A stretch of 64,000 nucleotides of DNA from Candidatus Omnitrophota bacterium (lineage in GTDB: Bacteria; Omnitrophota; Gorgyraeia; Gygaellales; Profunditerraquicolaceae): positions 166,313-230,312 of the forward strand of contig JALOQK010000001.1 in NCBI GenBank assembly GCA_025453395.1. The letters run 5' to 3'. Numbering within the stretch: position 1 is the first letter of the stretch; each line of letters opens with the position of its first letter. A program made the position numbers and the translations under genes. A model generated the notes under the pieces. It did not search any database and was not told the origin of the DNA. It was given only the letters and a program-made list of their open reading frames with translations. Of this stretch, positions 37,922-64,000 are shown in pieces.

Positions 37922-39100
37922 TTATTCATACTTTATTTCATCAAGAGAGAATACTACGCCGTCAGGATTAACATCAAGATTAGTCGCCCAGCAAAAACCT
38001 CCAATAATATAAGAAAGATCCTTTCCTTTCAAATCAATTGTGTACTGGGTCCATTCTTTATTTAATATAACTGGACCTATTCCGGAGCTATCAGAATCAG
38101 AGAATTCACCCATAATGCCTCCTAGCTTGAATTCTTCAATTCTTTCTCCGCCTTTTTCACCGCGCGCCCAGAAAGTAACTTTGACAGCTTTAGAAAGATC
38201 ATACCCGGCATCTACGCTTCCCCAGTTATTCGCTGGATTCTGCCAATAAGTCCCTGCCCAGCGCGAACCTTGAGTAGCTTTATTGTTATAGGTAATCTTA
38301 ATACAGGTATCGCCTAAATAGGGATCTTCTTTGCTGTTAGTATCGATCTTGATATCGCTGTAATCGCCCATCCATCCCGCTGGAATAAAATGATTCTTGG
38401 CTGACGAACGGTCTGAAAACACGTAAAAAGGCATAGCTTCCTGTTTTCTTCCCTCTGGCTTCAAAGTCGGGTCCATTTCAAATCTAATATCATCAATATA
38501 AAATGTAGCGCCGTTAGGATTGACATCAGCGTTAGTCACCCAGCCAAAACCTGCGCTTATATAAGAAAGGTCTTTGCCGGCTAAATTAATGCTGTATTCT
38601 TTCCATGCGTCAGTTAATTCCACAGGGCCCATCTCAACAGTAGCAGAATCAGGATATGTTCCTTTAATGCCTCCTAAAATAAACTTCTGGATAACTTCTC
38701 CGCCTTTTTCACCGCGCGCCCAGAAAACAATCTTGTTCATGCCGGTTAAATCAAAGCCGCCTTTTTTAGAACCCCAGTTATTCGCTGGATTCTGCCAATA
38801 AACCCCTACCCAGCCCTGGCCTTGGGATCTTTTCGCAGAATAAATAAATTTCAGGCAGCTTGCGCCAGAATGGGCATTGTTCATTTCCTGATCATTCATG
38901 ATCACATCACCCGTATCTCCCATCCAACCAGAAGGGATATAGTGGTTTTCTGGAGAACGCTTATCCGCATAAACACCAAACACCTTGTCCGTTGAGGCCA
39001 GCGCAGGCGCGGCAGCCGGCGCAGACTCTTCAGCAACAGCCACAGAGACTATCCCTACCAAGCCTAACACGGCAATTGCCATTAATGCCAATTTCTTCAT
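37922..39100 (-). CDS. Secreted protein with two tandem ~170 aa beta-rich domains (putative carbohydrate-binding modules)
   Basis: Signal peptide MKKLALMAIAVLGLVGIVSVAVA. There is an internal duplication: HYIPSGWMGD...YWQNPANNWGSKKGGFDLTGMNKIVFWARGEKGGEVIQKFILGGIKG versus HFIPAGWMGD...YWQNPANNWGSVDAGYDLSKAVKVTFWARGEKGGERIEEFKLGGIMG. Confidence 0.55.
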   Translation of the reverse strand: MKKLALMAIAVLGLVGIVSVAVAEESAPAAAPALASTDKVFGVYADKRSPENHYIPSGWMGDTGDVIMNDQEMNNAHSGASCLKFIYSAKRSQGQGWVGVYWQNPANNWGSKKGGFDLTGMNKIVFWARGEKGGEVIQKFILGGIKGTYPDSATVEMGPVELTDAWKEYSINLAGKDLSYISAGFGWVTNADVNPNGATFYIDDIRFEMDPTLKPEGRKQEAMPFYVFSDRSSAKNHFIPAGWMGDYSDIKIDTNSKEDPYLGDTCIKITYNNKATQGSRWAGTYWQNPANNWGSVDAGYDLSKAVKVTFWARGEKGGERIEEFKLGGIMGEFSDSDSSGIGPVILNKEWTQYTIDLKGKDLSYIIGGFCWATNLDVNPDGVVFSLDEIKYE

Positions 39101-41527: not shown

Positions 41528-41542
41528 TTTACAATCACTCCT

Positions 41543-47326: not shown

Positions 47327-47329
47327 CTT

Positions 47330-50300
47330 TTACAACCAAATCGCTGCCCTGCGCGGATAATTTCTATCTGCGTTGATTAACCAAAAATAATATTTATCAA
47401 AATCCATGTCGTGTTTATCTCTCGCAAAACGCACAAACCCGCCGCGGTTTAAGCCTCGCCTGGATATCAATTTCTGCCCGTCCCCGGGAGCGCCGTCGCG
47501 GTTGGAAAAAGCGTCTTTTTGGAAAACATCCTCATTGCGTGTACCTGTTCTCAACAAAATAAGATTCCTGTAGAATAATTCCTGCAGCAGGCTGACCGGA
47601 TGGGAAAAATACTTTCTTTGCGTAGTATCCGGGAATCCTTTCATAAAATATTCAGTAAGATATTTTATGGCGCTGCGCACTAAATCTTTACTCTGACTAC
47701 TTAGGTCAACCCGCCAAAAACAAACATCTAAAGATACGGTTTCTTCTTTTTCATTTTTCTTCTCAATAAATTCAATCCTGACTAAAAGTTCATTTTTAAG
47801 CCACGCCTCAAATATATTATTATGGAATTCTTTAATTTCTACTTTCGTTCCAGAAAATTCTATAACTTCAACGCGCTTAGGTAAAGTCATGCTATCTGAA
47901 TCTGTGTCGGGAGGCATAGCTCTATTCTTAGAGAAAATTGCCATCAGGCCAAGCGCTACTATAATTGTTAATAATACGGGTAAAAGGTAAGGTGGGAATG
48001 AAACAAATTGAGTATGCTGCACCGGCGCTCCGGTAGGCTGGGCTTGCGCCAGATACGCTCCAGCGGCAAAAAGGTCTTTCGCGCCTAAGGCAATAAACGC
48101 TGCGGTAAAAGGAATAAGCATATTACGGATAACCGGGCTACTGTTTGTCCCAAGCGCGCCGCCGATTTTTTTGTCCTGCGCCGGACTGCCGGATACCTCC
48201 TTAGAATTAAGTATCGTATCCCCGAAATCGAATTTCTTGCCTGTTTTATTCGCCTCAACAACGCTGGTAAAATATGGCCTAAATTGTTCGCACGAAGAAA
48301 AACGATAGCCTATCCTGTCTAAACTGATTATATGAGCAATCCCGGATGAACCCAGCATACGCAACATCGCGTTGGACATACCCATAAACAATGACTGATT
48401 TGCTTTCTGATAAATGTAATATTGATTTTTTGGCCGCGCGTGAAAATAAAAATCCGCGATATGATTAACTGACGGAAAAAGAAGAAATCTTTTTATATCT
48501 TCAAATATAATTTTGAGGCGCTTATCTGTATTCCCAATACTATCCTCAAAGGACCCGGCAATACCTCTTACTTTAGCATCTTTATCTTCGGCATAAACGC
48601 ATCCTTCAAAAAGAGAGTGGTCAAATGTCGGAGGGATATAAATACAATTACCGTCTTTGCCAGTAAGCATAATCCTATTAAGCTCTATAATTCTTTTTTT
48701 AAAGTCTAAAAAGTTAGTTAAGGCGCCGTTGTGTATTTCTTTTAATAACTGCACGAATTCTTCGCGCACCTGTTTTTGATTATGGAAATAATTTTTTTCG
48801 TTTTCTGATGCCGGGCCTGCGGCTTGCGCCTTACGATCGCACACTGCTTCATTCCAGGGAGCCTCTAAGGCGTTCTCCCAATCAAACTGCTTAATATTAT
48901 GTTTTCCTTGAAATAACTTCTGAAGGTAACGGAAGGCTTTTATCGCTAGGACAAATAGAAAAGGCACGGTCATCACCGGATACAGCGAGGCGCGCCCTAA
49001 ATGCGAATCCGGCGGGCCGGTAGACTGAGCTTGCGTCAGGTATGCGCCTGCGACAACCACCGCGCCAAGGCAAACTACACCAAGCATTGTGCAAACTTCT
49101 CCGAGGCCTTTTTTAGCGCCGCCGGGAGCGCCAACAAATTTGATATTCTGTTTTCCTTTTTCTGCCGCCTCATCCAATGCCCTCTTGGCAAAAAGCAAGG
49201 CGCTTTTATCAGTAGTGCCTTCTTTAAGCGCTTGCCGCAATAAATATAAAAGCCACGGCCAATCTTTAATCTTTACGACAAGCCCTATAATGCCAGATAA
49301 GGTTTTACCGTGTAGATCGCTGTGATAAATAATCATTTTCTTAACATATTCTTTACGGTCTAATTTGCCAAAAATCCTCTCCCATTCTTCAATCCTAAAA
49401 TCATCACCGCGGTTGTCTACAGTAACAGGTACAGGTTTTAAGCGTTTGGCAACCTTGAATTCATCCGTCTTCTGAATGGCGATTTGTTTAACCTCAACAA
49501 CTGCCTCATCTTGTTTTGCTTGAATCTTCAACCCAGACGGCGCGCCCACTGGCTCTTGCTGCGCTTTTTTTTCTTTTAATATAGCGTTAAACTCTTTTCT
49601 TAATATTATAAATTCGCCTCCGGTATTTTCTTTGCAGAGCTCAACGAGTAGGTCTCTTACTTTTTCTCTCCCCTGACTTAATTCTTTTCTTGAAGAGAAA
49701 TTACCCGCCTTAAACTTAAGTAAGGCTTCTTTTATCCGGGCGGACAGGCTTTCTATTTCAGGTGAAGTTTTACGCACCCCTGTCTCCGGTAAGGTTGCGA
49801 TTATGCCTTTTTTACGCAGTTCCTCCACAGGGTCAATACCGGCCTTACGCAAGCGCGCTAATATATTGGAAAAAGTAGAGGGGTGTTTTTTCATGTTCAT
49901 TTTATCCCGAATTTCCATAAGCGGGAATTTCTTACTTCCTTTATCTTTTGCTACTTCTTCGGCGGCTTTAATAAACTTAGCCAAAGAAACTTTACTCCCC
50001 CTTTCTGCGCTGCTTACGCCTTCTAAAATAACCCCCTTTTCTTTCTTCCATCGCCACAAGGTGCAATACTTAAAGCCTGCTAACTTAGCTAATTGCGTAA
50101 GCAATATTTTTTCACCGGGATGATTTTTCAGGAAATCTGCCGTAATTTGTTCTAATCGAGCTTTTCTATCTTCCCTGCCTTCTGCCCCGCTTCCATCGGC
50201 AAATAGATAACGAAATTTTCCGCCATAAAAAGGATGCCCGATTAGATTTTTATCTTGCGCCCCCAGATAATTCGGCCCCAGCCTGCCGCCAATTCCTAAA

Positions 50301-53300
50301 TCAGGGCCTGATTGAGAATAATGAGCTTTATCCCCGTTACATCCCTTCTCAATAGGATGGATAACCGCCTTGTAACACATCCTAAGCGGTAAATTTAATT
50401 CTAAATACCAAGATAGCGCCATAGAGTGGCCTTTGGACCTTCTCGGAAAGTATTTACCATAATAAAAAAATCCACTATTTGTTTTTAGCGATGGCATAAA
50501 TCTAAAGGTATTAATTCTGGGAGACATGCCCCATAGGGCATTAACAAAAGAATCCATAAGCTTACTGCCAATGCCATTTCTCTGGAAAGCTGGTAAAATA
50601 GCCAATTCTTGTAAATTGGCTATAGTTTCTTTATAAATAGAAAAACGGATAAACCCTACAATATCACCTTTTTCAACCGCCAAATAAACATAGTTATCTA
50701 ATAAGCGCTTTTTATACTCTTCTACTAAATGCTGCGCAGGATTAACTATTTTGGGTTTAGTCGCGGGATTAGAAAAAACTAATTTTTCTATACAGAGCAT
50801 CGCTCTTGCGGTTTTATCTAAGCGTTCAGGGCCGAGCTTAACGATATCCGCCGCGTTATAAATCCCGTCATCTAAATTAGCCCTTAATATACCGGCTTTT
50901 CTGACGACAGATGATTTATTAAGCAGATACTCGCCATAAGACAATATTGCAATGAATATAAATACGATAAGAAATGGCAATTTGCTTAGCCATGTATCAA
51001 GATGGTTAGCCGCCAAAAGCGCCGCAAGGCCGATGAACACAGGAGATTGTAAAACAACGCCTTCGCCGGAAGAAGGTGTTTGTTTACTCCCGGGCGCACC
51101 GCTGGGAAAATACTGGCGCCGCAACCCTCCTACTTGTTCTTGCGCTAATGTTTTCATTTGGGAATTACTTAAATTTGAAAAAGCGCCTTGCCCGAGAAAA
51201 CCCGCCTTACTATACTCATTAAGGAATCTGTATGTTATATATAATTTCCTTTCCGGGCTTGAGAATAACCAATAGAAAAATGTTAATAACGTACCCGGCC
51301 TGCCCTGATTAATCCTTTCAACAATCCCCTCGCAATACTCATCAGCAAATTTTAATATTCTCTGCGAGTCACTAATAAAACCCAAGAATAGAGGATCCTT
51401 TCTTAATCTGAAAATAATGCTCCCCCATTTTTCCTGAAGCGCGTTGCCGAAAACTAACGGGCTATGATCAACAAGATACATATCGGCAAAACTGACATCG
51501 CCGCGGTAATCAAAAGCTAATGTCGTACCCGGATAATAACGCTTCTTCGTTTCGCTAAGTTCGCATTGCTCAAAAACAGAATCAGGATACACATCTAAAG
51601 CTCTGCCAATCCTGCTTAACTGGCTTATCCTCAGCGCCCTTCTTATTACTTGTTCATTTTTTTCAACAAAACTGTGTTGCATTTGAAAACTAACTCCCAA
51701 ACCACGGCTTGATAGTTCCTGAAAGAAATTCCAAGTCGTCTGGCCAGAGGTTATATTGATTAATGTATTAATGATAATATCCGCTTCGGGGTAATACCGG
51801 ATAACTGCCTCCGCGAGGTTAGCTATCTTGATAAGCGAAATTGCCGGCCTCGCCAAATGGCTATCATCCAAAGAAATTCTAAAGGTAAACTTACTATCAC
51901 TACCTCTTGATTTCTTAATCATGAGCACAAATTCTCGCGCTTTTTCTGGAGTAACCATCAAAGAAGCATTGGTAGTTAACGAACAAACATTACGCTCAGC
52001 GATTATTTCATGGAGGTCTTTGCGTAAAGAAAGCTCTCCTCCGGAAATATACAAAGAGGGGTCCCTTATGCCCATGCCGCTGAAATCTGTCGCGCGGTAG
52101 AAATCCACCAAAACCATTTCTCTTTTCCTCCCGCTGTCGCAGGAAAACATACAGATATCGCAACCACTGTTACAGGTAAGCGAAAGAACACAAAGAATCC
52201 TTTTAGGAACCCAATTTGAATACGGATTAATTCGAATATCAAGGTTGGCGAACTGTTCTCTTCTTAAAAACTCTACCCGCTGTTGAAAACTATAATCTAA
52301 ATCAGAGATGTCTTCAATAACCTGCGACCCAAAAATCTCCCTGACTTTAGACGCCCCGCTCCCATCGGCAAACAGATAACGAAACTTTCCGCCATAAAAA
52401 GGATGCCCGATTAAATTTTTATCGCGCGCCCCCAGAAAATTCGGCCCCAGCCTGCCGCCAAAATCAATATCAATATCGGATAACGACGGCAGATGATGAA
52501 AAAGCGAACTCCCCGTCGCACCCAAACCCCGCCCGCCCGCGCCGCTGGCATTCGCCTTATTTACCGTTTCTAACCTCGTAGGTTGAATCGTTTGCTTCTT
52601 TATCTTTGGCCGCTCCGGGCTGCAGGCCGGCGAAGTGAGAGCGCCGCGATCAATATTACTATCTGCTAGGGACACTTCTGGCGAAAGTTGTTGCGGTGTT
52701 TTAGCTTTAGAGAAAACGGTCTGGTTAATTCGGTAAATTCTCCAGGGTTTAATATAAGATCTCCAATAGCTAAAGCAGGTATTCGGCATTATGTTGGCCG
52801 CCCATTCAATATCACGCGACAGATGAGGCTGTCTGGTCGTCTGTTCGCTGACAATAAGATATCCGCCGCGTAAAACCTGGATTTTGACCTTTTTCCAGAA
52901 ATAACTTTTTTTGGAAATACGCCCGGCCATCCCCGGCCCCTGAACATAAACAATCCCGTATTTGTTTTGATTTTGCATAAAATCATTAATCTGATATAAA
53001 ATCTTTATATTTTGTCTTCCCAAAAGTGCCCGCATCTTATCGTTTAATCCGATATTTATTTCCAATAAAGCAGGATCAATAACCTTAACGGCCATTTCCC
53101 CCAAGGCTTCCCCCACCCAGTTAAAATATTCGCTTAATTGTTTGATAATTCCCTGAATATCCTGCTTATCGGGAATACTCACAGACATTTCCTTCTGAAC
53201 AAAATTATCGTTAAAAATAAAACAGCGCGCCGAAGGAAACAAGTTCACCAAGGCCATAAAACTTACCGCGTCATGACCGGCGCAGGGATAATAAACATCC

Positions 53301-56300
53301 CCTTTATATATCCTAAAGGCATCTCTTAAATCCGCTCCGCCGAGAATTTCAGCTTGTTTGTATTTAGGCGCGATGTATAGCTTGCAAAACCGCGGCATAA
53401 TCTCTTGCTCGATAACCGCATTTTCAGATGAAAGCATTTCTGAAATCTGGCCCGCATGAACAAGGCTTATCCTTTTTTCTAAAAGCAACTGCGGCCTCTC
53501 CTGCAGGAATAAATCCTTTAACGCCTGCTCATAATCAGCGCGGATGATTATTTTGTTTTTATATTCTTGATCAAACTGGCCGTAGGCGCTATCAATAAAA
53601 AACTTTTCATTGCCATCATAGAGAACAATCCAATAGTGATGAGAACCATTTTTAAGCGCGGGGCCGCTGTAAAAACCCGGCATAATTTCCAGATGTGCGC
53701 CCCGATTCTTTCCGATCGGTAAATCAAACTTAGCAGAGAGCATCTTAGCCAAAAGCACATTGCTTGTAATGCATGAAGCGTATGTAAATTCAAGCAATTT
53801 TTTATCCGCAATTACCCCAAAAAACCAATCCTGGATAAGCGCGATAAAATCAGCATGTTGAAATCTCCGAAAGATTCCCTCAAAGCCCCCCATTTTAATC
53901 TCCGGGAGCGTTAGATTAAATCCGTCTGAATAAGCTTGTTGAAATAATTGCCTCTGGCAGCACATATTCGCATATATATTTTTCTGCCTCATATCTTCTG
54001 ATAAATGAATGCCCGCTGGCAACATCCGCCAGCCAAGCATATTTGGCGAAGTGGGCGCGTTGCCGCGGTTCAAAAGGGTGTCCCCTTGGGGAACGTCCCC
54101 ATTTCCATTTCCGGAATTCTCTGATCCCACATAAGCCACGCGAGGATTAGAGATAGCTCCTAAAAGTATCGCACCTTCTGTTTCCGGCTCAACAACATGA
54201 TAAATGTCGCAAAAAGCTCCTTTAATCATTTTTACTTCCTGCCACTTAACGCAAATTTTATCCTGAATATCGCTGGAAACAATCAAGCCTAATTTATTGT
54301 AAACCGCATAAAGATTATAAGCGCTTCTGTCAAATATGATTTCCGCTCTAAGATTATTCTCTATTTTAGAAGCCTCTCGGGCATACCCTAAAGCTTTAAG
54401 CTTTTCAGTAAAACACCCTGCTGGCTGAACACCGAACCAATAATCGCAAATAAGTTTTCTTATTGCCGGCCTAAAGATGTGGAATTTAGCCGTTAATAAA
54501 CACGCCAAGAAGATAAAATATAAGGTAAACCCAAATAGAGGAAATTTCGCGGCAAGTGCCAGCGGAACAAAAGTTACCAGCGCGCAGGATGCGAAAATAT
54601 GCGGAATACTTATGCGCCTCATGCCTAAATAAGGAATAATATCTTTATTGATACCCTCGGAACGGATGATAAAATCTACATTAAGCTTACGGAAGATTTT
54701 TTCTTTTTCAGGATCAGTAACAATTACCGCGGTTAAAGCGCCTGCACTTTTAGCTTCTCTTGCGCCTTGCGCTTGGTCTTCAAACAAAATAATCTCATTA
54801 AGCGCAAGGCCGTATTTCTTCCTTAAAGCAATAATCTGTGTTTTTTTATCGTGCGGTATACCGCTTTTCAGGGGATATGCTCCGTAAATCTGGTCATAGA
54901 AATACTCCATGCCCAAAATCCTGATTGTTTCCTTTAAAGAAACACTTGGCTGGCCGCTTGTCTGAATAATCCTTACTCCCGGAAACTTGCGCCTGATTTC
55001 ACACAAGGCTTTTACTGTTTCCGGAATAACAATATTGTCGCCTCTTCCTATTTTCTCTTTAACACTTTTTAAAATCAAATCGCAGAATTCATCAACATAC
55101 TCCTGATTTGTCCTTAGGTTTCTAACTTTTTTTGTGCGCGCCCTTGCTATGACATCGCCAATTTGAGCATACAAAGAACCTCCGCCACATGCATTAACAT
55201 AATCTATGCCATTCTTAAGGCCTTCTTTTGTGGGGATATAGCTTCGGCTTTCGCCTTTCATGATCCGGTCATACATTGCCCCCCAGACAAAGAAAACACA
55301 ATCCAGGCTGTCCACCACTACCCCATCCCAAACCAAAACAATCACTTTTATTCTTGGCTTAACATCCGTAATTTTAATAACCTTTGCCGGATGTTTTGAA
55401 CGCATCCGCGAGAAAATACTGGATAAATACGGACGCGCGCTAAATAATAGACAAAATAATATTGTCAATGCCCAGAATCCTTTTGGGAGCGAAACAAGCA
55501 TCTCTTGCGGCCAGAAATCAGCCGGCATTAAACTTATTAAAAAGAATGCCGAAAGAATATGGCTGAATGTTTTTATGCCGCGGGGCGTTAATGCTGCCAG
55601 GCCCTTCTGGCTTTCTTTTATTAAAGAAGCGGCGGCGTCCAACTTTTTTTTGGTTGCCGGGTCATCGCCACCTTGCTTATTATTTTTTGCCGTCATCGCC
55701 TGGTCAGCAAATAACGCCAGCCCTTGCGATAGCATCGACAGACGAATCTCAAAAATTCTTTGGATATATTTCGCATGAATAGCTACCGCCAAATCTTCAT
55801 GATTAACAAAACTATTCACAACAATTAACGCATAACCAATACTCTCAACATCACGGCATTTTTCGGCCAAGCCCGAAAGAAAACTAAACGTTTCATATCT
55901 AATAACATTCTGGCTACAAATCACTGAATCTTTTGTTGTTTTTTGTACAGCGGCATCTTTCTGCTGCGCAGGAATAATATCAAATTTCTTTGAACCGTTG
56001 TCCTGGAGCGCTTTAATATTATTTACCGTTTCTAACCTCGTAGGCTGAATCGGTAGCTGGGCTACCGATGCCGGGCTGTTGAATTGCCTTTCACGGTAGA
56101 AGACCGAATATTGTGTTGCCCCTGAGACAAATCCCTTAGATTCCAAAACTCTCTCTATCAAAAGATAAGGGAATTTGATATCTTCTTGCTTTTTAAACCT
56201 TAAATATGGGGCCATACGATATGTCTTTACAATGCTGCTAGTGAATTGTTTAACAAAATATTGGATTGCTGATAAATCATTTATTCTGATACTCAGCGGA

Positions 56301-59300
56301 TAAAGAACGCAATAGACAAAACCGTCTATTCTACATACGCGCAGAGCTTCTTTTAAAGCTGAATACTTGTCTTTGATATACTCCATCACCGCACTGCCAA
56401 AAATGACAACATCAAAACTGTTATCGGCAAAAGGAATGCCCTTTTCCATATCGTAGATAATCTGGCGGGATTTTAGCCTATTGATATATTCTTGGGCTTC
56501 TGAGACAGTAATTGCCATTCCCGTTTCGGAAAAATTATGGAATCTATCTTGCAGGTCTTCAGGATTACTATAAATTAGGTCTTCCTTTGCCAGCGCCGTA
56601 ATATCAACATTATTGCCGCAGGTTGCCATAAGCCCAAAAGCTTCAAATCCTCTCCCGGGACCGATCAATAACACTCTAACAACTCTCTGCCCTATAGAAA
56701 TTTTAATTGTCTGTATGTCCATTGTTATGTCGCCATCAAAAAGCATATTGAGGCCCCAAAAATCCCTATTAATATTTTTCTCGCAATCATATGGGTTCTT
56801 CCTCACCGTATCAACCAATCCATTTTTTTCGCCTTCTATTAACTTTCCTTCTATGCTCCCATCGGCAAAAAACCAGCCGAATTTGTGGCTTTCGTAAAGC
56901 GGATCTCTTACTCCGTCAAACGCCCGTGCCCCCAGATAATTCGGCCCCAGCCTGCCGCCAAAACCAAAACTAAAATCAATATCCGCAGGCGACGGCTGAT
57001 GATGAAAAAGCGGGCTTCCTGCCGCGCCTGTTACCTGCCCCCCGAGCGCGCCGCCGCGGTTCAAAAGGGTGCCTTTTTGGGGAACGTCCCCATTTCCATG
57101 CGCCGGGCTGTTTGCTTTCATTGCTTTAAAACGCCATGCAAACAGACTTAAGATATAATAAATTAAATTGCTGAAAACTGGGATGCGCTCGTTATAAGTA
57201 AAGGATATAAAAGCTATGCTGATAAAAAATATAACGGTATAAGCTAACATTCCAAATGCAGAAATATCCGATAAGCCGTCTGTATCAGCAAACGATCCGT
57301 AAACAATCGCCGCAAGTAAAGAGAAGATATTCAGTAGCGAAAAAATAATTTGTTCAAAATTGACAAAACGCGCTTGCGCTTTCACGGTAGATTTTACAGC
57401 CAATTGTGAAATAAAAGAAAACCGTACTTTTTCCGTATGTTTTCTCATTTGCCCAAAGATAAAATCATTAAGCGCGGGGCTTTCCTGAAAAAATATAAAA
57501 CGCGCCAAAAGCTCCTCAAGCTTATCTATCTGCTGTATTTCTTTGCTGAAAACCTGATCCATATAATAACCGGCCTCAAGCGGCATGCCGCAAGAAGCAA
57601 AATAAACAGCTAATACAAGCCAAGCCAAAGTTCCCTCATCAAAATAATTGAAGCGACGAATAATATTTTCATATCTGCTTTTCAACAGTTTATCCAGAAA
57701 AAGTGAAGCCATAGATTCTTCTGAAACATTCCCGATAACAGAGTTAGAAATAAGATTCTTAAATTCCTTTCTTTCCTGCATAGCCATATAAGCAACATGG
57801 TCACAAATAACAAGATTGCCCTGCGGATCAACAAAAAACATCATTTTGTCAAGGTCGCGCGCATGCTCCTGTATATCGGCAAAACTAAGCCGTAGGCTAT
57901 AGGATTCGTTCTTAACGGCATTACCTTGCCCGATGATACGATTAATAAATGTCTTTGTTTTTCCTAATCCATAAAAGTCTAAAGACCCCAAAGAAACAAC
58001 AAATAATAACAATTTTAATACCAAAGATGGAAAGCTGGGCCTTATCCCTAAACGCCAGGTCATATCATCTACTTCACGGCCTGTTTTATTGGCATAGCGG
58101 ACATTAAACATTAGTTTTATCTTTCCGCGGCGCGCCAGTTTATTCATTGTTTTTATAACCTCGGAAAGCTGCTTGCCTGTTTTTTCGCGCATCTCTTTTT
58201 CATGATATTCGTCCGCAGAAACAAGCCAAACCACATTCTTAGGGAATTGCGCGAAGAATTCTTTTGCTACTTTTATATCTTCGGGAACAAGATAAGCGTT
58301 TGTAACAATGCGCACAACCTCAATCCTTTGGGCGGCATAACGGACCACATCCAGAAAATCCCGGCTTACGCCGCCTTCAAAATATTTGTCCTTGCCATAA
58401 CAAAGCGGCTCTCCGGTGCCAACAATATGCACAAGCTTACATCCTCTTAACTGCTCAAAAAGCGAGTAGAGCGCTTCTTTAGGGACATCCCAAAAACCAC
58501 CTTCCTTACAGGCGCAAGCCGCCAAGCAATCCGCGCAATTAAAACAACATTTATAGGTAACCATAACATTAATATCTTCCGCCACGCGCCCATCCATAAT
58601 TGCATTAAGGATACGCAAAGCTATAGTCGCGGTGCCGATGCCGTTTTTGGACTTAAAAGAAAACGGTATTTTCAATAAAGATTCGTCCGAAGTTCCTACA
58701 GGATCAAGATCAGGTTTATTTCTCAAGGAAGGCCCGTATAGAAAAATTACAGCGATAATTACTAATAAAACAGGAAATAACAAGCATAAATAAAATGGGA
58801 ACGCCTGCCCCGGCGGAGCTGGAATATTCTGGGCAGTTAAAACCTGCCCCGCGCTAACTGCACCAACTAACGAAAGAAATAATGTAGCAATTACCGGCGG
58901 GATAAGATTTGTCATCGGCCTGCCGTGGGATTTCTTTTCATATCTTTGCTGAACCCTTAACAGCCTGCTTTGATACCCACGGACTTCCCCCATTGGTAAT
59001 GATTTCTCAAGTGAGGCCAAGCGAAATAATGCGTCCTTGCATAAACTTATTGCGGTTGCCGGACTTAATTTTTCTGTTTCTAAAGTAAGGATTTGCTCTT
59101 CAAGAATAAGGATACCGCTCTTTTCAACCTCTGCCTTTTTAATCTCTACCTCCGGCTTAATTGGTTGTTGCGCGGTAGGCTTTGGTAAAGGGTTCCTAAA
59201 ATGCTGCGCCTGATAAGGAAAATCTCGTTTTATCCTATCATCCGCGTCAGCCGGCCAATCATCCTGAAAGATCCATTCCGCGTTTTTTTCTAAATAGTTT

Positions 59301-62300: not shown

Positions 62301-64000
62301 TCCACAGCCCAAACGCGTTGCGCCTCCAAACTGGAAATTAATCGCTTCAAGATAACGCAGAAACGCAGATTCCTTAAAATAATATCAACCCCCTGCTCCA
62401 TACGGGCCAATCCACACCTAGGCCCATACTTATGTTCCTGAAGGCCTTGTTTATAATCTTTATCTAAGCAGCCTAAAACTGCGGCTATGGTTTCCCGAAC
62501 ACCTATATCTGCCTCCATTAAAGCCTGCCTAATCATTGCTTCGCCTTGTTCGCCGGAAACTATTTGCTCTTCCATCTCGGCTATCCTTTTTTCAAGCGGT
62601 TCTCCACCCGGCAACTGCGCAAACCCGCGGTATTTCAATCTCTGCCTGAAAGTTAGAATAAAGGAGACGGTTCTATTTTCTAGAAAACGCCAGAGGTAAA
62701 TATAAACGGGGACTGCGATAATAAATAACAGGGGAATAAATAACAGGTATGGCGAGATAGCAGCTGTCTGCATCGCATCTACCGGCGCTCCGGTAGGCTG
62801 GGCAGGAATAAGGTATCTACTTGCGGCAACCGCCGCGCCAAGACAAGCTACGCTCAGCATTATGTAAACTTCTCCGAGGCCTTTTTCTTTTCTGTCCCCG
62901 TCCGCGCCGGAGCTAATAGCATTAGTAGAAACTTCAAGAACAGCCATTTTAATTTTATTCGATATAAAGCTATACTGTTGGCGTATTTCGCTTTTTTCTT
63001 TTTCAATGAATATGACATTATTCAGCTTCGCAATAAGCTGCTTCACGCACCCGGGTATGGAATTTCCCCAAGGATTACGTAAGCTGAAAAAATATTTATT
63101 ATAAATATCGTCCAACTGTTGTGCCGCAAGCTTAAATAAATTAAGCTTTAACAAATCTTCTAGGTTAAAATTTGCCCAAGACTGGGCAAGCGCATGTAGT
63201 ATATCAAAAGGCATTTCGCCGAAATGGCCTTCTTCTAAGAATAATTTTGCCGCGCCTTCTAAGGCATCCTTTACGGATATCTGCCCTTTCTTCAGCCGAC
63301 AGAGAATTTTGGAAAAATCAGCACAAAGGGCATCCACAATTTCCCTTCTTTCTTCTTTAGAAAGCTGGAATAAATAAGTACGATTAGCGCTAATCTTTTC
63401 TACTGCCGCATAAATAGCGCTTCCTTTAAGCAGAATATGACTGTTGAGCGCAAAATCTAATTTTTCTAAATTATGGATTTGGTAGAGGCGGGTAACAGCT
63501 TCAAAAGCCGGCAATTTACGGGAAACAAATATAACTCTAAAGAAATACGCCCAAAGCCGCGGCGAACCGCGCACAAAATTATTTGTAATTGCGAATTCTC
63601 TGTAAACATTAAAAAATACCTCTGTTTTTTCTTTATTTATTCCGTTTAAGCGATTCCTGCGCCACGCTTTAGAGAAAACTTTCCTAAACTCTACCAAATA
63701 ATTAGCATCTTTAGCCTGCCTAAGCATATAGCACAAAATCACATCTAACTCCCGAGTATATTTTGCCTTATTCCGCAGCATTCCCCCAATTTGCCCGAGG
63801 AAGGTATGGAATCCAGTGAATTCCGGCTCCTCCTCTTTAATTGCAGGCTCATTAATCAGGCCTATTTTCTTGGCATAAATACAAACTGAAGTTTTCTTGC
63901 GAATTAATTCCGTTAATTTTTCTTCAATACGTTTATTCCTCTGCCATACCCCGGCGCAACGCATAAGAAACTTTCTATTTTCTGCCCTAAAGATAAAACG
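47330..64000 (-). CDS. Giant ORF (at least 5544 aa, 5' end probably beyond the window) encoding a membrane-anchored multi-enzyme protein with radical SAM x2, SAM-methyltransferase, HAD, GNAT and HEAT-like motifs
   Basis: A single uninterrupted reading frame of 16.6 kb in AT-rich DNA. The motifs found are:
- CxxxCxxC radical-SAM cores at ~58524-58550 (VTYKCCFNCADC) and ~52139-52180 (LTCNSGCDIC).
- Methyltransferase motif I VLLIGPGRGFEA at ~56641-56680, with FDVVIF downstream.
- HAD motif VLVWDGVVVDS at ~55305-55340.
- GNAT motif FQRNGIGSKLM at ~50556-50595.
- Four copies of a 2-TM anchor module, G(L/A)GEV..ML.V.CLGA...A..YL..AQ(P/S)TG(A/P)P + TM, at ~62700-62900, 58790-58915, 48960-49110 and 47960-48110.
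There is no stop codon in the 36 nt upstream of the first in-window ATG (63964). Confidence 0.8.
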   Translation of the reverse strand, partial: RFIFRAENRKFLMRCAGVWQRNKRIEEKLTELIRKKTSVCIYAKKIGLINEPAIKEEEPEFTGFHTFLGQIGGMLRNKAKYTRELDVILCYMLRQAKDANYLVEFRKVFSKAWRRNRLNGINKEKTEVFFNVYREFAITNNFVRGSPRLWAYFFRVIFVSRKLPAFEAVTRLYQIHNLEKLDFALNSHILLKGSAIYAAVEKISANRTYLFQLSKEERREIVDALCADFSKILCRLKKGQISVKDALEGAAKLFLEEGHFGEMPFDILHALAQSWANFNLEDLLKLNLFKLAAQQLDDIYNKYFFSLRNPWGNSIPGCVKQLIAKLNNVIFIEKEKSEIRQQYSFISNKIKMAVLEVSTNAISSGADGDRKEKGLGEVYIMLSVACLGAAVAASRYLIPAQPTGAPVDAMQTAAISPYLLFIPLLFIIAVPVYIYLWRFLENRTVSFILTFRQRLKYRGFAQLPGGEPLEKRIAEMEEQIVSGEQGEAMIRQALMEADIGVRETIAAVLGCLDKDYKQGLQEHKYGPRCGLARMEQGVDIILRNLRFCVILKRLISSLEAQRVWAVDILKNMPQQDKLCYVDKFISRVKLCNTEQEKSFLISGLLAMGIEEALASVIELAASVEDESSQAAFEALKAYPDSPRIAELAKLQLISVLEEEKAKPDEVIRVIKIIELGEPDKAVDAMLLKIDKRFEPSSKSYILALYALAQRLRVDKTAGLWPKINEEERSAIIRCLTLIGTYEAVRILILLAKGENARDRDLSKSKLGELLRLNNKHALACRQEIINIAAAYGKLNRKAGQDISDKAFSQGQLIFVLFVLAITVILGTALKNVFEYSDNASILISTGAAASLLLIWQVCACDLKTFWEDFKQTCSAGKEQAISFGFIIFFLSAATAAFIFIPSKLLAFVLSVGILSLGAKVFNVSALINCAIGRLSRLGIGKSLLRILQAPQNEKQMAEKKAFQEKQDTMRRMRRHNSDKPESIIFYQQVLEKEIPEHLTDDPDIKQLRESLLNQTNECILRAIRLTEQQRQDAALSKPAQQLRKEQKAALSQELENLKAGLSGLEPLGQFEAQLMNILKRFPKDFQRLPQIEKFREDTGKFLACKKIDSDTSRAKIQNAENINGKIVNAVKKAYAELDALRADSFISLDALNQGVSAICQRVLNVIPRKHVPMKIVQEFLENAKYAENKLLFDLVESTLKKHLEENGLRENKYAVCLGLMKNIIVERDKLIYEYKLRQDFDLFISWLIEGLPFEQIKAKMQEGEFFPEFDPLISKVENALAVNPKDIIDQAGAGSLCEDGQGNIKEKARNFIPGLFRSLPPEERLLNYLTYDCWLAKYLRGSLLNMESKVLVELNLCVIKAMQSAAGMCRKLCNEYSFQSAASKVEMSSVINRVIAVIDQRYTTIDKEVKIKIKELTQARKDIDALNLEKAFIPELEIAKNSLAQTVEMLAFIHARDSSWGEYAQYQKWQEDKKQSLQAAIEMAREREKARAASAILKLKVTSLLNISDPGYSGRGKLLLWCAQINNPQANNPVKSLVQIYKALNPTIHEEAGLRENIKNNVLRVIKNYLEKNAEWIFQDDWPADADDRIKRDFPYQAQHFRNPLPKPTAQQPIKPEVEIKKAEVEKSGILILEEQILTLETEKLSPATAISLCKDALFRLASLEKSLPMGEVRGYQSRLLRVQQRYEKKSHGRPMTNLIPPVIATLFLSLVGAVSAGQVLTAQNIPAPPGQAFPFYLCLLFPVLLVIIAVIFLYGPSLRNKPDLDPVGTSDESLLKIPFSFKSKNGIGTATIALRILNAIMDGRVAEDINVMVTYKCCFNCADCLAACACKEGGFWDVPKEALYSLFEQLRGCKLVHIVGTGEPLCYGKDKYFEGGVSRDFLDVVRYAAQRIEVVRIVTNAYLVPEDIKVAKEFFAQFPKNVVWLVSADEYHEKEMREKTGKQLSEVIKTMNKLARRGKIKLMFNVRYANKTGREVDDMTWRLGIRPSFPSLVLKLLLFVVSLGSLDFYGLGKTKTFINRIIGQGNAVKNESYSLRLSFADIQEHARDLDKMMFFVDPQGNLVICDHVAYMAMQERKEFKNLISNSVIGNVSEESMASLFLDKLLKSRYENIIRRFNYFDEGTLAWLVLAVYFASCGMPLEAGYYMDQVFSKEIQQIDKLEELLARFIFFQESPALNDFIFGQMRKHTEKVRFSFISQLAVKSTVKAQARFVNFEQIIFSLLNIFSLLAAIVYGSFADTDGLSDISAFGMLAYTVIFFISIAFISFTYNERIPVFSNLIYYILSLFAWRFKAMKANSPAHGNGDVPQKGTLLNRGGALGGQVTGAAGSPLFHHQPSPADIDFSFGFGGRLGPNYLGARAFDGVRDPLYESHKFGWFFADGSIEGKLIEGEKNGLVDTVRKNPYDCEKNINRDFWGLNMLFDGDITMDIQTIKISIGQRVVRVLLIGPGRGFEAFGLMATCGNNVDITALAKEDLIYSNPEDLQDRFHNFSETGMAITVSEAQEYINRLKSRQIIYDMEKGIPFADNSFDVVIFGSAVMEYIKDKYSALKEALRVCRIDGFVYCVLYPLSIRINDLSAIQYFVKQFTSSIVKTYRMAPYLRFKKQEDIKFPYLLIERVLESKGFVSGATQYSVFYRERQFNSPASVAQLPIQPTRLETVNNIKALQDNGSKKFDIIPAQQKDAAVQKTTKDSVICSQNVIRYETFSFLSGLAEKCRDVESIGYALIVVNSFVNHEDLAVAIHAKYIQRIFEIRLSMLSQGLALFADQAMTAKNNKQGGDDPATKKKLDAAASLIKESQKGLAALTPRGIKTFSHILSAFFLISLMPADFWPQEMLVSLPKGFWALTILFCLLFSARPYLSSIFSRMRSKHPAKVIKITDVKPRIKVIVLVWDGVVVDSLDCVFFVWGAMYDRIMKGESRSYIPTKEGLKNGIDYVNACGGGSLYAQIGDVIARARTKKVRNLRTNQEYVDEFCDLILKSVKEKIGRGDNIVIPETVKALCEIRRKFPGVRIIQTSGQPSVSLKETIRILGMEYFYDQIYGAYPLKSGIPHDKKTQIIALRKKYGLALNEIILFEDQAQGAREAKSAGALTAVIVTDPEKEKIFRKLNVDFIIRSEGINKDIIPYLGMRRISIPHIFASCALVTFVPLALAAKFPLFGFTLYFIFLACLLTAKFHIFRPAIRKLICDYWFGVQPAGCFTEKLKALGYAREASKIENNLRAEIIFDRSAYNLYAVYNKLGLIVSSDIQDKICVKWQEVKMIKGAFCDIYHVVEPETEGAILLGAISNPRVAYVGSENSGNGNGDVPQGDTLLNRGNAPTSPNMLGWRMLPAGIHLSEDMRQKNIYANMCCQRQLFQQAYSDGFNLTLPEIKMGGFEGIFRRFQHADFIALIQDWFFGVIADKKLLEFTYASCITSNVLLAKMLSAKFDLPIGKNRGAHLEIMPGFYSGPALKNGSHHYWIVLYDGNEKFFIDSAYGQFDQEYKNKIIIRADYEQALKDLFLQERPQLLLEKRISLVHAGQISEMLSSENAVIEQEIMPRFCKLYIAPKYKQAEILGGADLRDAFRIYKGDVYYPCAGHDAVSFMALVNLFPSARCFIFNDNFVQKEMSVSIPDKQDIQGIIKQLSEYFNWVGEALGEMAVKVIDPALLEINIGLNDKMRALLGRQNIKILYQINDFMQNQNKYGIVYVQGPGMAGRISKKSYFWKKVKIQVLRGGYLIVSEQTTRQPHLSRDIEWAANIMPNTCFSYWRSYIKPWRIYRINQTVFSKAKTPQQLSPEVSLADSNIDRGALTSPACSPERPKIKKQTIQPTRLETVNKANASGAGGRGLGATGSSLFHHLPSLSDIDIDFGGRLGPNFLGARDKNLIGHPFYGGKFRYLFADGSGASKVREIFGSQVIEDISDLDYSFQQRVEFLRREQFANLDIRINPYSNWVPKRILCVLSLTCNSGCDICMFSCDSGRKREMVLVDFYRATDFSGMGIRDPSLYISGGELSLRKDLHEIIAERNVCSLTTNASLMVTPEKAREFVLMIKKSRGSDSKFTFRISLDDSHLARPAISLIKIANLAEAVIRYYPEADIIINTLINITSGQTTWNFFQELSSRGLGVSFQMQHSFVEKNEQVIRRALRISQLSRIGRALDVYPDSVFEQCELSETKKRYYPGTTLAFDYRGDVSFADMYLVDHSPLVFGNALQEKWGSIIFRLRKDPLFLGFISDSQRILKFADEYCEGIVERINQGRPGTLLTFFYWLFSSPERKLYITYRFLNEYSKAGFLGQGAFSNLSNSQMKTLAQEQVGGLRRQYFPSGAPGSKQTPSSGEGVVLQSPVFIGLAALLAANHLDTWLSKLPFLIVFIFIAILSYGEYLLNKSSVVRKAGILRANLDDGIYNAADIVKLGPERLDKTARAMLCIEKLVFSNPATKPKIVNPAQHLVEEYKKRLLDNYVYLAVEKGDIVGFIRFSIYKETIANLQELAILPAFQRNGIGSKLMDSFVNALWGMSPRINTFRFMPSLKTNSGFFYYGKYFPRRSKGHSMALSWYLELNLPLRMCYKAVIHPIEKGCNGDKAHYSQSGPDLGIGGRLGPNYLGAQDKNLIGHPFYGGKFRYLFADGSGAEGREDRKARLEQITADFLKNHPGEKILLTQLAKLAGFKYCTLWRWKKEKGVILEGVSSAERGSKVSLAKFIKAAEEVAKDKGSKKFPLMEIRDKMNMKKHPSTFSNILARLRKAGIDPVEELRKKGIIATLPETGVRKTSPEIESLSARIKEALLKFKAGNFSSRKELSQGREKVRDLLVELCKENTGGEFIILRKEFNAILKEKKAQQEPVGAPSGLKIQAKQDEAVVEVKQIAIQKTDEFKVAKRLKPVPVTVDNRGDDFRIEEWERIFGKLDRKEYVKKMIIYHSDLHGKTLSGIIGLVVKIKDWPWLLYLLRQALKEGTTDKSALLFAKRALDEAAEKGKQNIKFVGAPGGAKKGLGEVCTMLGVVCLGAVVVAGAYLTQAQSTGPPDSHLGRASLYPVMTVPFLFVLAIKAFRYLQKLFQGKHNIKQFDWENALEAPWNEAVCDRKAQAAGPASENEKNYFHNQKQVREEFVQLLKEIHNGALTNFLDFKKRIIELNRIMLTGKDGNCIYIPPTFDHSLFEGCVYAEDKDAKVRGIAGSFEDSIGNTDKRLKIIFEDIKRFLLFPSVNHIADFYFHARPKNQYYIYQKANQSLFMGMSNAMLRMLGSSGIAHIISLDRIGYRFSSCEQFRPYFTSVVEANKTGKKFDFGDTILNSKEVSGSPAQDKKIGGALGTNSSPVIRNMLIPFTAAFIALGAKDLFAAGAYLAQAQPTGAPVQHTQFVSFPPYLLPVLLTIIVALGLMAIFSKNRAMPPDTDSDSMTLPKRVEVIEFSGTKVEIKEFHNNIFEAWLKNELLVRIEFIEKKNEKEETVSLDVCFWRVDLSSQSKDLVRSAIKYLTEYFMKGFPDTTQRKYFSHPVSLLQELFYRNLILLRTGTRNEDVFQKDAFSNRDGAPGDGQKLISRRGLNRGGFVRFARDKHDMDFDKYYFWLINADRNYPRRAAIWL

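Follow-up and report, generated by a model that had tools for sequence, protein, structure and literature searches.

Does the near-identity of short DNA segments lying kilobases apart in one giant bacterial gene reflect the copying of DNA between positions, or only the conservation of the peptides that they encode? The question is raised by the window analysed here, a 64-kb stretch of DNA from an Omnitrophota MAG, in which a giant open reading frame (ORF) runs along the minus strand. Its stop codon was read at 47330-47332 and the frame is open to base 64000, so that 63964 is not its start. A JGI gene call on a contig identical to the window assigns 24,062 aa to the gene, of which only the final 5,556 codons (23%) fall within the window. 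The product is a multi-enzyme membrane protein of Omnitrophota: radical SAM, methyltransferase, HAD and GNAT Pfam matches are tiled between TM segments, hydropathy giving 21 hydrophobic segments in the windowed ORF, paired for the most part as hairpins. As far as the relevant passages on giant and very long multi-enzyme proteins of Omnitrophota go (West-Roberts et al. 2023, bioRxiv 10.1101/2023.11.21.568195; bioRxiv 10.64898/2026.06.07.730766 for the ‘multi-enzyme metabolic cluster’ class), the gene resembles the described cases in its Omnitrophota MAG host, its called length, its varied enzyme Pfams between TM segments, and the type II secretion / type IV pilus and GH2 genes found in its flanks.

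All the repeats reported in the original prediction exist, far beyond chance (table 1). Three copies of a linker module, A, B and C, are present; the full module spans about 90 codons and comprises five sub-segments, an LLNRG-type or IQPTR-type segment being followed by SxLFHH..DID, the GGRLGPNxLGA core and DKNLIGHPFYGGKFRYLFADGSGA. Copy A has the GNAT domain on one side and the next conserved domain on the other. Copy B lies directly N-terminal to a second radical-SAM-like domain, and the homology of relatives to this downstream domain starts at aa 3860-3872, level with the module's 3' end or shortly beyond it. Copy C is flanked by a TM hairpin and the methyltransferase domain, and its diverged 3' part ends in FADGS. 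In a blastn self-comparison, A and B (50184-50292 versus 52353-52461) share 93.6% identity over 109 nt (E 4.5e-42), a separate repeat search giving 120 nt at 90%; the first claim, of some 105 nt at about 90%, corresponds to 98/106 (92.5%). The partly diverged third copy is equally real, C showing 79% identity to B over 104 nt (56925-57028 versus 52425-52522) and 92.9% to A over 42 nt (56928-56969 versus 50259-50300). The longest exact matches among the repeats are 34, 28 and 26 nt. Common to the three copies is a 32-nt GC-rich core, GGCGGCAGGCTGGGGCCGAATT[A/T]TCTGGGGGC, with a single variable base, which occurs three times with no mismatch and was never retrieved in 100 shuffles.

Table 1. Coordinates of the giant ORF, the linker module and the other repeats in the window (aa in window numbering).
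Feature	Position (nt)	Strand	Remarks
Giant multi-enzyme ORF, C-terminal 5,556 codons	47330..64000	-	ORF reading and gene call on identical JGI contig
Module copy A, aa 4540-4598	50171..50347	-	high-identity part 50184-50303
Module copy B, aa 3785-3876	52337..52612	-	IQPTRLETVN, SSLFHH..DID, GGRLGPNFLGA, DKNLIGHPFYGGKFRYLFADGSGA
Module copy C, aa 2285-2375	56840..57112	-	GNGDVPQ..LLNRG, SPLFHH..DID, GGRLGPNYLGA, diverged 3' part
32-nt GC-rich core, GGRLGPN[Y/F]LGA	A 50259..50290; B 52428-52459; C 56928-56959	-	mosaic breakpoint
GNGDVPQ..TLLNRG segment, solo copy, aa 3285-3303	54055..54108	-	54 nt, 89% to 57046-57099 in copy C
IQPTRLETVN segment, solo copy, aa 2636-2649	56019..56058	-	40 nt, 92.5% to 52557-52596 in copy B
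LLNRG-type segment, diverged third copy near protein C-terminus	47482..47536	-	55 nt, 76% to 57040-57094, E 1.3e-4
TM-hairpin anchor module 1, KGLGEV..CLG..YLIPAQPTGAPV	62782..62886	-	79% (83/105) to anchor 2
TM-hairpin anchor module 2	49009..49113	-	type shared with anchor 1 and with the anchor at the C-terminus of homologue P0019
TM-hairpin anchor module 3, loop region	48021..48069	-	different anchor type; 23-nt patch shared with anchor 1
Conserved domain, aa 3361-3510	53435..53884	-	His, Trp, Asp invariant; Cys nearly invariant

Sub-segments of the module also occur alone. The solo IQPTRLETVN copy adjoins the methyltransferase domain, immediately after it, and the diverged LLNRG-type copy is the weak part of the set, because its peptide alignment was judged by eye. 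The anchor pair 1 and 2 stands as a repeat, at a lower identity than first proposed (73/93, or 78.5%, instead of about 85%). Similarly, the 24-nt match announced between anchors 1 and 3 is real, but it is 23 nt exact (AQPTGAPV patch, 48021-48043 and 62781-62803) and the first coordinate given for it was displaced by about 20 nt; outside this patch, the two anchors have only approximately 42% DNA identity.

All repeat pairs in the blastn self-comparison are direct, and the distance between their starts is in each case a multiple of 3, the module copies being separated by 723, 1,500 and 2,223 codons, in frame. The repeats measure at most 120 nt and are sited between non-homologous enzyme domains, the module edges falling at the start and stop points of Pfam matches and homologue alignments. 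Tandem repeats and meaningful inverted repeats were looked for and none is present, nor does any repeat copy occur outside the giant gene in the 64-kb window. When the dot-plot was run, no off-diagonal stretch was longer than 120 nt; thus, gene segments or domains were not duplicated. For Omnitrophota giants, the repeats under discussion are those of Pfam domains and those of nucleotides in tandem, the latter having mostly dissolved, according to the pertinent passages of the same two papers (bioRxiv 10.1101/2023.11.21.568195; 10.64898/2026.06.07.730766). Unlike these, the present ones are dispersed, non-tandem, short DNA repeats in linkers between non-homologous domains, and the keyword-matched passages of both papers contain no description of dispersed linker repeats.

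Such similarity could in principle arise with no exchange of DNA, from an old repeated peptide motif whose identity reflects amino-acid conservation plus codon preference. The coincidence of the short off-diagonal stretches with conserved peptides is consistent with this, and the GC content of the motifs (51-63% versus 41.5% for the gene) means that local codon preference could depart from the gene-wide one. However, A and B use the same codon at 29 of 34 identical residues, where about 13 are expected from gene-wide codon usage (30/37 versus 14.3, z 5.7, in the gene-wide comparison), and this excess persists in a conservative shuffle of the repeat's own codons (29/34 versus 19.9 expected, p<5e-5). 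The same holds for the GNGDVPQ..TLLNRG pair, identical in codon at all 14 shared residues (5.0 expected from gene-wide usage), and for the pooled pairs (77/91 versus 39.6 expected when shuffling within repeat codons). Codons rare in the gene are also common to the copies, namely CTG (10% of Leu codons) and CGT (15% of Arg codons).

The identity is moreover unevenly distributed along the module. Upstream of the core, B and C are 77% identical and A and B 45%; in the core, every pair reaches 94-97%; downstream, A and B are 92% identical and B and C 55%. Copy B is accordingly C-like in its 5' part and A-like in its 3' part, the breakpoint falling inside the core common to all three (max-chi2 26.5, permutation p<5e-5). 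Synonymous divergence follows the same pattern, although the segments are short and each of these statistics rests on just 10-30 synonymous sites: in the core, dS is 0.10 between B and C and 0 between A and B; upstream, it is 0.60 for B-C and saturated for A-B; and downstream, it is saturated for B-C and 0.36 for A-B (Fisher p 0.001 for B-C and 0.009 for A-B). Such sharply unequal dS values in adjacent segments of one pair, at least six-fold apart, indicate that the three copies form a mosaic broken in the GC-rich core, and are at odds with conservation of a peptide alone. For whole pairs, dS is 0.24 (A/B), 0.08 (LLNRG) and 0.13 (IQPTR), while the dN/dS of A/B is approximately 0.2; selection at the peptide level is thinly documented by 3.5 nonsynonymous versus 5.5 synonymous changes (Fisher p 0.04).

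The closest homologue, P0019 (MCU0652608.1), provides a time reference. In the domains flanking module A, dS to this protein is 0.83 and amino-acid identity 0.4-0.87, whereas at the module A linker P0019 has unrelated, unalignable sequence (identity 0.17, dN 0.97) and lacks the module. Judged by dS (0.24 versus 0.83), copies A and B are younger than the split from this homologue. P0019 also uses other codons for the same AQPTGAPV residues, so that the codons of this patch differ between lineages. A close orthologue carrying the module was searched for and not found, and the comparison of within-genome with orthologue clustering relies on a single comparator, distant and possibly paralogous. 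Taken together, the codon excess, the mosaic, the segment-wise dS and the age of A/B relative to the homologue split go beyond a conserved peptide with constrained codons, as the original prediction had it, and imply that DNA-level copying between positions happened; an old motif preserved with no exchange is very improbable. Three other long genes of Omnitrophota (L002, L003 and L004) contain in-frame repeats of their own (61-112 nt, 85-97% identity), with codon excesses of z 5.6, 6.9, 5.2 and 2.6.

Selection on the cores as nucleic acid (as a hotspot of recombination, a binding site for protein or RNA, or a signal for translational pausing), the peptide being secondary, would leave codon identity in excess and dS varying by segment just as observed. 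A 32-nt core nearly invariant in three copies with saturated flanks would be expected in that case, and the cores form islands of high GC content, include several less-used codons and are located at domain boundaries, where translational pauses would be plausible. We nevertheless regard such selection as unlikely, since the RNA folds are no stabler than those of shuffled sequences (z -2.4 to +1.8, inconsistent between copies), no Rfam match was obtained, and promoter- or terminator-like sites are not enriched. Furthermore, no core was detected in the genes of relatives with 6 mismatches allowed, and the repeat sequences of these relatives are wholly different from the module.

Another possibility is that the giant ORF encodes a polyprotein and that the module is its recognition or cleavage site, the DNA similarity being a by-product of site uniformity. 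The protease might then be the embedded Cys-His-Asp domain (53435..53884), for which a transglutaminase/papain-like fold is predicted, and which lies outside the repeats. The location of the modules at domain junctions, the low A/B dN/dS and the presence of a diverged LLNRG-type segment close to the natural C-terminus would all suit such processing, and cleavage is proposed for Omnitrophota giant proteins in the relevant passages of bioRxiv 10.1101/2023.11.21.568195. Yet dozens of relatives possess the same Cys-His-Asp domain and none the module, which at 36-90 residues is far above typical cleavage-site length, and the fold family includes deamidases, transglutaminases and acyltransferases too. 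Cleavage accounts for the conservation of the peptide and not for synonymous identity. We consider it decidedly unlikely, and as a proposal about function it is in any case compatible with a copying mechanism.

The length range of repeats in diversity-generating retroelements (DGRs) takes in about 110 nt, and copy A has adenine at seven of the eight core differences between A and B, as if the two were template and variable repeat. The chances of this are next to nil: no reverse transcriptase was seen in the giant ORF or in the other ORFs scanned across the window, both copies code in frame within one ORF, a third copy exists, five of seven differences are A/G transitions and four are synonymous third positions, and changes occur outside AAY codons.

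Repeats also create branches in k-mer graphs. Indeed, in an independent k=31 assembly (Logan), a contig ends exactly at the 30-nt stretch common to A and C, 30 bases of the 32-nt core forming the k-mer of this contig end, and a mis-join at in-frame repeats would keep the ORF intact. However, the copies are 7-21% diverged, and are hence not assembler duplicates; their exact matches (34 nt at most) are far short of read length; and the JGI contig matches the window at 100% identity for 21.3 kb, the Logan contig for 7.7 kb. The assembly-collapse hazard raised initially thereby reduces to a real assembly effect of another kind, a k-mer graph break and not a collapse. A small in-frame mobile element could be suspected as well, as the genome has a separate palindromic intergenic repeat family, but the present repeats are non-palindromic, keep one orientation and frame, and stay within the giant gene. 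An origin as artefact or mobile element is, overall, highly improbable.

Several known systems offer partial parallels. Rickettsia palindromic elements are small repeats that have entered coding genes in frame; the module is likewise short repeat DNA tolerated in frame, at protein positions where it leaves folding intact, but it is non-palindromic, restricted to one orientation and, within the window, to this gene, and its peptide appears to be under constraint. Short-tract gene conversion between repeated cassettes is a feature of the Neisseria pilE/pilS minicassettes, and concerted evolution one of the repeats of large surface proteins. As in pilE/pilS, we observe short identical islands beside diverged stretches, mosaic copies and junctions in conserved islands; unlike there, one expressed ORF holds all copies without silent donor loci, the intervening sequence consists of whole unrelated enzyme domains instead of variants of one antigen, and programmed or high-frequency switching is not in evidence. 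In assembly-line polyketide synthase (PKS) genes, GRINS are interpreted both as products and as promoters of gene conversion, speeding the diversification of modules; by definition they exceed 500 bp in length, 80% in identity and 0.15 in mean |GC| and |TA| skew, and they are located inside homologous PKS domains (Nivina et al. 2021, PMC8256042). The present repeats share with GRINS their situation inside a very long modular enzyme gene and a composition unlike the rest of it, but they are 23-120 nt long, occupy linkers of unrelated domains, have inconsistent skews and belong to a non-PKS gene.

Episodic segmental copying or gene conversion among private linker modules is thus the probable explanation of these repeats. 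The common DNA ancestry of the copies is younger than the surrounding gene, and their sub-segments differ in partner and age; the module itself is best read, from the sequences compared, as private to this lineage and set at the boundaries of unrelated enzyme domains. Segments of about 25-110 nt would have been copied non-reciprocally from linker to linker, several times, through gene conversion or partial templated duplication, with junctions probably in the 32-nt core and in further short stretches of identity. In turn, purifying selection at the peptide level may have kept the copies alike enough for further exchange. Of the recent duplication or ongoing conversion first envisaged, only the DNA-level copying survives: dS values of 0.08-0.4 mean that the events are old enough for substitutions to have accumulated, and on the time scale of populations, exchanges with dS at 0.1-0.4 do not count as recent. 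As only 23% of the gene lies in the window, the true donor copies may be located upstream.

Our best guess is that the module peptide acts as a connector at the cytoplasmic face, with a structural or a docking role. Since all copies are direct and in frame, whole enzyme modules could be lost or gained in frame through the repeats, and these linker repeats constitute an interesting, though not exceptional, example of intragenic recombination.

All the repeats lie within a single minus-strand ORF, the giant gene, whose stop codon is at 47330. The ATG at 63964, from which residues are numbered here, is not the start of this ORF, and no stop codon is found in the 36 bases 63965–64000; the window holds the last 5,556 codons. 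The same ORF is a 24,062-aa gene call (positions about 170,928–243,116) on contig Ga0392394_0000006 (JGI 3300037461; 243,163 bp), which is 100% identical to window 34872–56152. The ORF of ‘5,544 aa’ is therefore the C-terminal quarter only of the giant protein and, as the JGI call would start approximately 47 nt from the contig end (window 47330–64000; locus L006, 1–8823), the gene may be longer still. Neighbour proteins exactly match Candidatus Omnitrophota/Omnitrophica MAG entries MCU0665651, -666, -673 and -674 (272,391-bp NCBI contig), and every named relative is from Omnitrophota. Type II secretion/type IV pilus genes, GH2-like hydrolases, PilZ and ABC transporters flank the gene.

The gene belongs to a class of Omnitrophota giant proteins already known as ‘multi-enzyme, inner-membrane-anchored’ (bioRxiv 10.1101/2023.11.21.568195; bioRxiv 10.64898/2026.06.07.730766): the genome is from Omnitrophota, the ORF has at least 10,000 aa (JGI call) and varied enzyme domains occur with predicted TM helices. 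No enzyme domain dominates; many distinct ones are present with TM segments in between, and a Kyte–Doolittle hydropathy scan predicts 21 hydrophobic segments between domains, most as paired hairpins. Besides the second CX3CX2C domain (see table), two more domains are common to other Omnitrophota long proteins of 2–7.5 kaa. Ten unannotated stretches gave no reliable Pfam match at E up to 1, and a sequence-profile search of PDB with the Cys-His-Asp domain gave no match.

The repeat feature is real. When the gene was compared with itself (blastn, word size 7), only short off-diagonal matches were returned, the longest exact ones between repeat copies being 34, 28 and 26 nt; a separate repeat finder was concordant. 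All pairs are direct and each spacing is a multiple of 3 (723, 1,500 and 2,223 codons for the direct in-frame repeats); searches for tandem and for inverted repeats found none of relevance. The original prediction of near-identical A and B stretches is confirmed (98/106, or 92.5%, as first delimited). The anchor pair exists, at 73/93 (78.5%) rather than the approximately 85% proposed, and the predicted 24-nt match between anchors 1 and 3 proved to be 23 nt, its first coordinate having been placed approximately 20 nt away.

Repeat pairs, linker module copies and domains of the giant gene (nucleotide positions refer to the window, residues to the count from the ATG at 63964; TM, transmembrane).
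Feature	Segment 1	Segment 2	Residues	Length, identity	Content or source
A/B pair	50184-50292	52353-52461		109 nt, 93.6%, E 4.5e-42	blastn
B/C pair	56925-57028	52425-52522		104 nt, 79%	blastn
A/C pair	56928-56969	50259-50300		42 nt, 92.9%	blastn
LLNRG pair	57046-57099	54055-54108		54 nt, 88.9%	blastn
IQPTR pair	56019-56058	52557-52596		40 nt, 92.5%	blastn
Anchors 1/2 (TM-hairpin modules)	62782-62886	49009-49113		105 nt, 79%	blastn
Anchors 1/3 (TM-hairpin modules)	48021-48043	62781-62803		23 nt, exact	
Diverged LLNRG-type pair	57040-57094	47482-47536		55 nt, 76%	blastn
Linker module copy C	56840-57112		2285-2375		GNGDVPQ.GTLLNRG, then SPLFHH..DID, GGRLGPNYLGA and a diverged stretch, end FADGS
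Linker module copy B	52337-52612		3785-3876		IQPTRLETVN, then SSLFHH..DID, GGRLGPNFLGA and DKNLIGHPFYGGKFRYLFADGSGA
Linker module copy A	50171-50347		4540-4598		core and 3' part only
Solo LLNRG segment			3285		
Solo IQPTR segment			2636		
Diverged LLNRG-type segment			near C-terminus		
Radical SAM			about 1800-1950		Pfam
Methyltransferase (Methyltransf_11)			about 2500-2560		Pfam
HAD			about 2870-3080		Pfam
Second CX3CX2C domain			about 3860-4290		common to other Omnitrophota long proteins (2-7.5 kaa)
GNAT			about 4420-4480		Pfam

The three linker modules share a 32-nt core, GGCGGCAGGCTGGGGCCGAATT[A/T]TCTGGGGGC, present in three mismatch-free copies and in none of 100 shuffles; likewise, two occurrences of a 45-nt pattern for the LLNRG segment contrast with none in shuffled sequence. 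All module copies sit at junctions of non-homologous domains. Copy C has a TM hairpin on one side and the methyltransferase on the other, copy A lies after GNAT and before the next conserved domain, and copy B immediately precedes the second radical-SAM-like domain, to which the homology of relatives begins at aa 3860–3872. AQPTGAP forms the loop of the anchor repeats, which are TM hairpins. A possible copy of the entire module at the C-terminus (..LNRGGFVRFARDK..), noted by eye, was not recovered by the HMM, and only LLNRG-type DNA similarity is reported there. Single-sequence AF2 prediction of module B with its downstream domain was uninformative (pLDDT 34).

Short off-diagonal matches alone had been named beforehand as what a conserved motif with constrained codons would give. 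Only such matches were indeed obtained, yet the DNA identity of the repeats exceeds protein constraint alone, both against gene codon usage and under a within-repeat shuffle. Where A and B have identical residues, the codon is the same at 30 of 37, against 14.3 expected from gene codon usage (z 5.7); by the same measure, the counts are 14/14 for the LLNRG pair (5.0 expected), 9/10 for the IQPTR pair (3.7 expected) and 15/20 for anchors 1 and 2 (7.0 expected). In a stricter test, codons were shuffled, per amino acid, solely among the repeat's own positions: A and B still shared 29 of 34 codons against 19.9 (p<5e-5), and pooled independent pairs 77 of 91 against 39.6. The copies also have in common codons that the gene seldom uses, among them CTG, at 10% of Leu codons, and CGT, at 15% of Arg codons, and they form GC-rich islands (51–63% GC versus 41.5% for the gene).

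The copies are also mosaic. In a three-way codon alignment of A, B and C, pairwise identities upstream of the core are 45% for A–B, 77% for B–C and 41% for A–C; within the core they are 94%, 97% and 97%, and downstream 92%, 55% and 53%, respectively. Informative sites switch at the core from ‘B=C’ to ‘A=B’ (max-chi2 26.5, with 0 of 20,000 permutations as high, p<5e-5). Synonymous divergence (Nei–Gojobori) follows the same segments: B–C dS is 0.60 upstream, 0.10 in the core and saturated downstream (Fisher core versus downstream, p 0.001), and A–B dS is saturated upstream, 0 in the core and 0.36 downstream (Fisher p 0.009). Such a segment-wise pattern could not have arisen if each copy had been duplicated once and its silent sites had then decayed uniformly. 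Segments with different boundaries may have been copied at different times, or the core may be under selection at the nucleotide level. Over whole segments, dS is 0.24 for A/B (dN 0.043), 0.08 for LLNRG, 0.13 for IQPTR and 0.40 for anchors 1 and 2, and the A/B dN/dS is about 0.2 (Fisher p 0.04).

A nucleotide-level function of the cores, for which their low silent divergence could be a sign, is possible. However, folds of seven repeat copies were no better than shuffles, no Rfam family was found in the window, promoters and terminators are not enriched in the gene, and the cores show no cross-lineage conservation: they are absent from the genes of four relatives with 6 mismatches permitted.

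The closest homologue found, P0019 (MCU0652608.1), belongs to a different MAG of Omnitrophota, one with a nearby accession range, and is 51% identical over aa 4329–4944 (GNAT and the following domain). In the flanks, dS is 0.83 and dN 0.28 over 534 codons, the same codon being used at 65% of identical residues. At the position of module A, P0019 is effectively unrelated (dN 0.97), with an amino acid identity of 0.17 against 0.4–0.87 in the domains on either side. Set against the A/B dS of 0.24, these values suggest that the A/B similarity is younger than the split from P0019. This is a single comparator, and since its module order around the conserved domains differs from that of the giant gene, it could be a paralogue. 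The AQPTGAPV loop patch has 23 nt identical in anchors 1 and 3, which are otherwise about 42% identical, and P0019 has other codons for the shared residues. As a separate observation, the giant protein is fast-evolving at the protein level (dN/dS about 0.34 against P0019 over the 534 codons; 49115–50980 versus L005, the P0019 locus), and a domain at aa about 4600–4750, HTH-like by weak Pfam matches, is far better conserved than GNAT, with up to 87% identity.

Taken as a conserved motif only, with no exchange of DNA, the repeats would owe their likeness to the peptide; this reading is disfavoured, as the codon excess, the mosaic with its segment-wise dS and the P0019 dating all run contrary to it. 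The recent intragenic duplication or ongoing gene conversion originally proposed was partly right, in that exchange of DNA among the copies is supported by the codon excess, the mosaic and the segment-wise dS. Episodic non-reciprocal copying among linker modules is the best-supported account of the repeats. Gene conversion or partial templated duplication would copy segments from linker to linker, with exchange junctions falling in short identical islands, and purifying selection on the peptide would preserve the substrate for more exchange. The spaced direct repeats could in turn delete or duplicate whole enzyme modules.

In the aligned A/B stretch, adenine is found in copy A at 7 of 8 base differences (5 A/G transitions, 4 synonymous), and the GC content of copy A is 51% versus 56% for copy B. 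AT-biased decay of a single copy, or chance, is more probable here than mutagenesis by a DGR, because no reverse transcriptase was found in the ORFs scanned. A DGR with a TR/VR pair was considered and rejected: there is no RVT match in the giant ORF or in 40 other ORFs scanned (the 5' side of the gene being outside the window), the A/B differences are mostly synonymous A/G transitions, and A and B both encode the same conserved linker within one ORF, with a third copy present.

The module itself is absent from 82 relatives by regex and by an HMM built from the three copies, so that a polyprotein reading finds no module copy at the junctions of these relatives. Querying proteins with the module B region gave no match; this word-indexed search missed relatives found by HMMER, even where HMMER gave E 1e-116 to 1e-154, and its negatives need caution. 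A degenerate DNA pattern for GGRLGPN[YF]LGA had 0 occurrences in GTDB species genomes and JGI metagenome contigs, the source contig evidently not being among the scanned DNA. Protein-seeded locus searches of the same two collections returned no relatives. All these negatives are weaker than they look.

Short internal peptide repeats, private to each protein, were found in 7 of 25 relatives of 1.5–5 kaa, and DNA was compared for three repeat-bearing relatives. Locus L002 (protein P0003) has repeats of 106 nt at 91.5% and 61 nt at 96.7%, L003 (P0022) one of 112 nt at 86.6%, and L004 (P0035) repeats of 105, 91, 44 and 43 nt at 85–91% in addition to a 951-nt domain duplication. The repeats of these loci, too, are dispersed and in frame save for small indels, and they carry a codon excess (z 5.6, 6.9, 5.2 and 2.6); the signature recurs in four independent genes. 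Judged from these sequences, the Omnitrophota long-gene class seems to be characterised by linker repeats that are short, private and similar in DNA. The nucleotide-repeat scans described in the accessible portion of bioRxiv 10.64898/2026.06.07.730766 are for tandem repeats only. Among single proteins, P0003 has 26 consecutive identical codons in one run, P0001 contains about ten repeats of a TM-hairpin module (LHCSGLLL..PPW..), and P0006 and P0055 likewise have private short dispersed repeats whose DNA is near-identical.

The phenomenon, gene conversion among intragenic repeats in long modular genes, is already known, and the advance is incremental; the synonymous identity excess and the mosaic copies of intragenic gene conversion or concerted evolution are both found here. 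GRINS are defined as regions of >500 bp with >80% DNA identity and mean absolute GC and TA skews >0.15 (PMC8256042). The longest repeat here is only 109–120 nt, whereas identity exceeds 80% in four pairs (93.6%, 92.9%, 92.5% and 88.9%; two others are at 79%). GC/TA skews, unstable in such short segments, are 0.30/0.02 for A, 0.30/0.33 for B and 0.20/0.17 for C; those of LLNRG, equally short and unstable, are GC 0.06–0.12 and TA -0.24 to -0.30, and the whole gene has 0.15/-0.02. It seems rather unlikely that the linker repeats are recombination joints of Omnitrophota giant genes, and not mere scars, in a GRINS-like diversification outside polyketide synthases. Under that reading, exchange between the copies, all of them direct and in frame, could delete, duplicate or swap whole enzyme modules without breaking the ORF; the signature seen in four genes and the different module order of P0019 would be in its favour.

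That the repeats are an artefact or a mobile element is unlikely. They are spanned in contigs of 243 and 272 kb. ORF continuity cannot by itself speak against a mis-join, as the repeats are in frame. A Logan contig from SRR12684589, 100% identical to window 42567–50288, ends at the exact start of a 30-nt stretch common to copies A and C, a break expected from k=31 graph behaviour. The predicted assembly hazard is therefore borne out as fragmentation and not as collapse, exact matches of at most 34 nt being spanned by read-length-aware assemblers, and the repeats account for one route of giant-gene fragmentation in short-read k-mer assemblies.

Other repeats occur elsewhere in the window. A separate AT-rich, palindromic family of about 90–100 nt (4250–4355, 4878–4990, 7728–7838 and 41405–41530) matches itself in both orientations at 74–86% identity, three of its copies occupying short gaps between genes and the other lying at the 5' end of the GH2-like gene. 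The family resembles a REP/MITE-like element or a bidirectional terminator that is shared. Two dispersed pairs lie near gene ends (10302–10347 versus 24742–24788, 46 nt, 89%; 15535–15593 versus 37816–37883, about 55 nt, 79–85%, both orientations). An unannotated 392-aa ORF (37922..39100), adjoining GH2-like genes, contains an internal duplication (37935–38262 versus 38487–38814; 331 nt, 71%), and the ribonucleotide reductase large subunit (15606–19130) contains an intein with a LAGLIDADG homing-endonuclease domain.

The giant genes of Omnitrophota rank with the longest genes known. The linker modules supply candidate boundaries at which their proteins could be cut into units, either to predict structures or to test for proteolytic processing, and exchanged, lineage-private linker repeats offer a testable handle on the gain, loss and shuffling of modules. 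If the repeats were indeed recombination joints, they could explain genes of 10,000–150,000 codons with lineage-specific domain orders.
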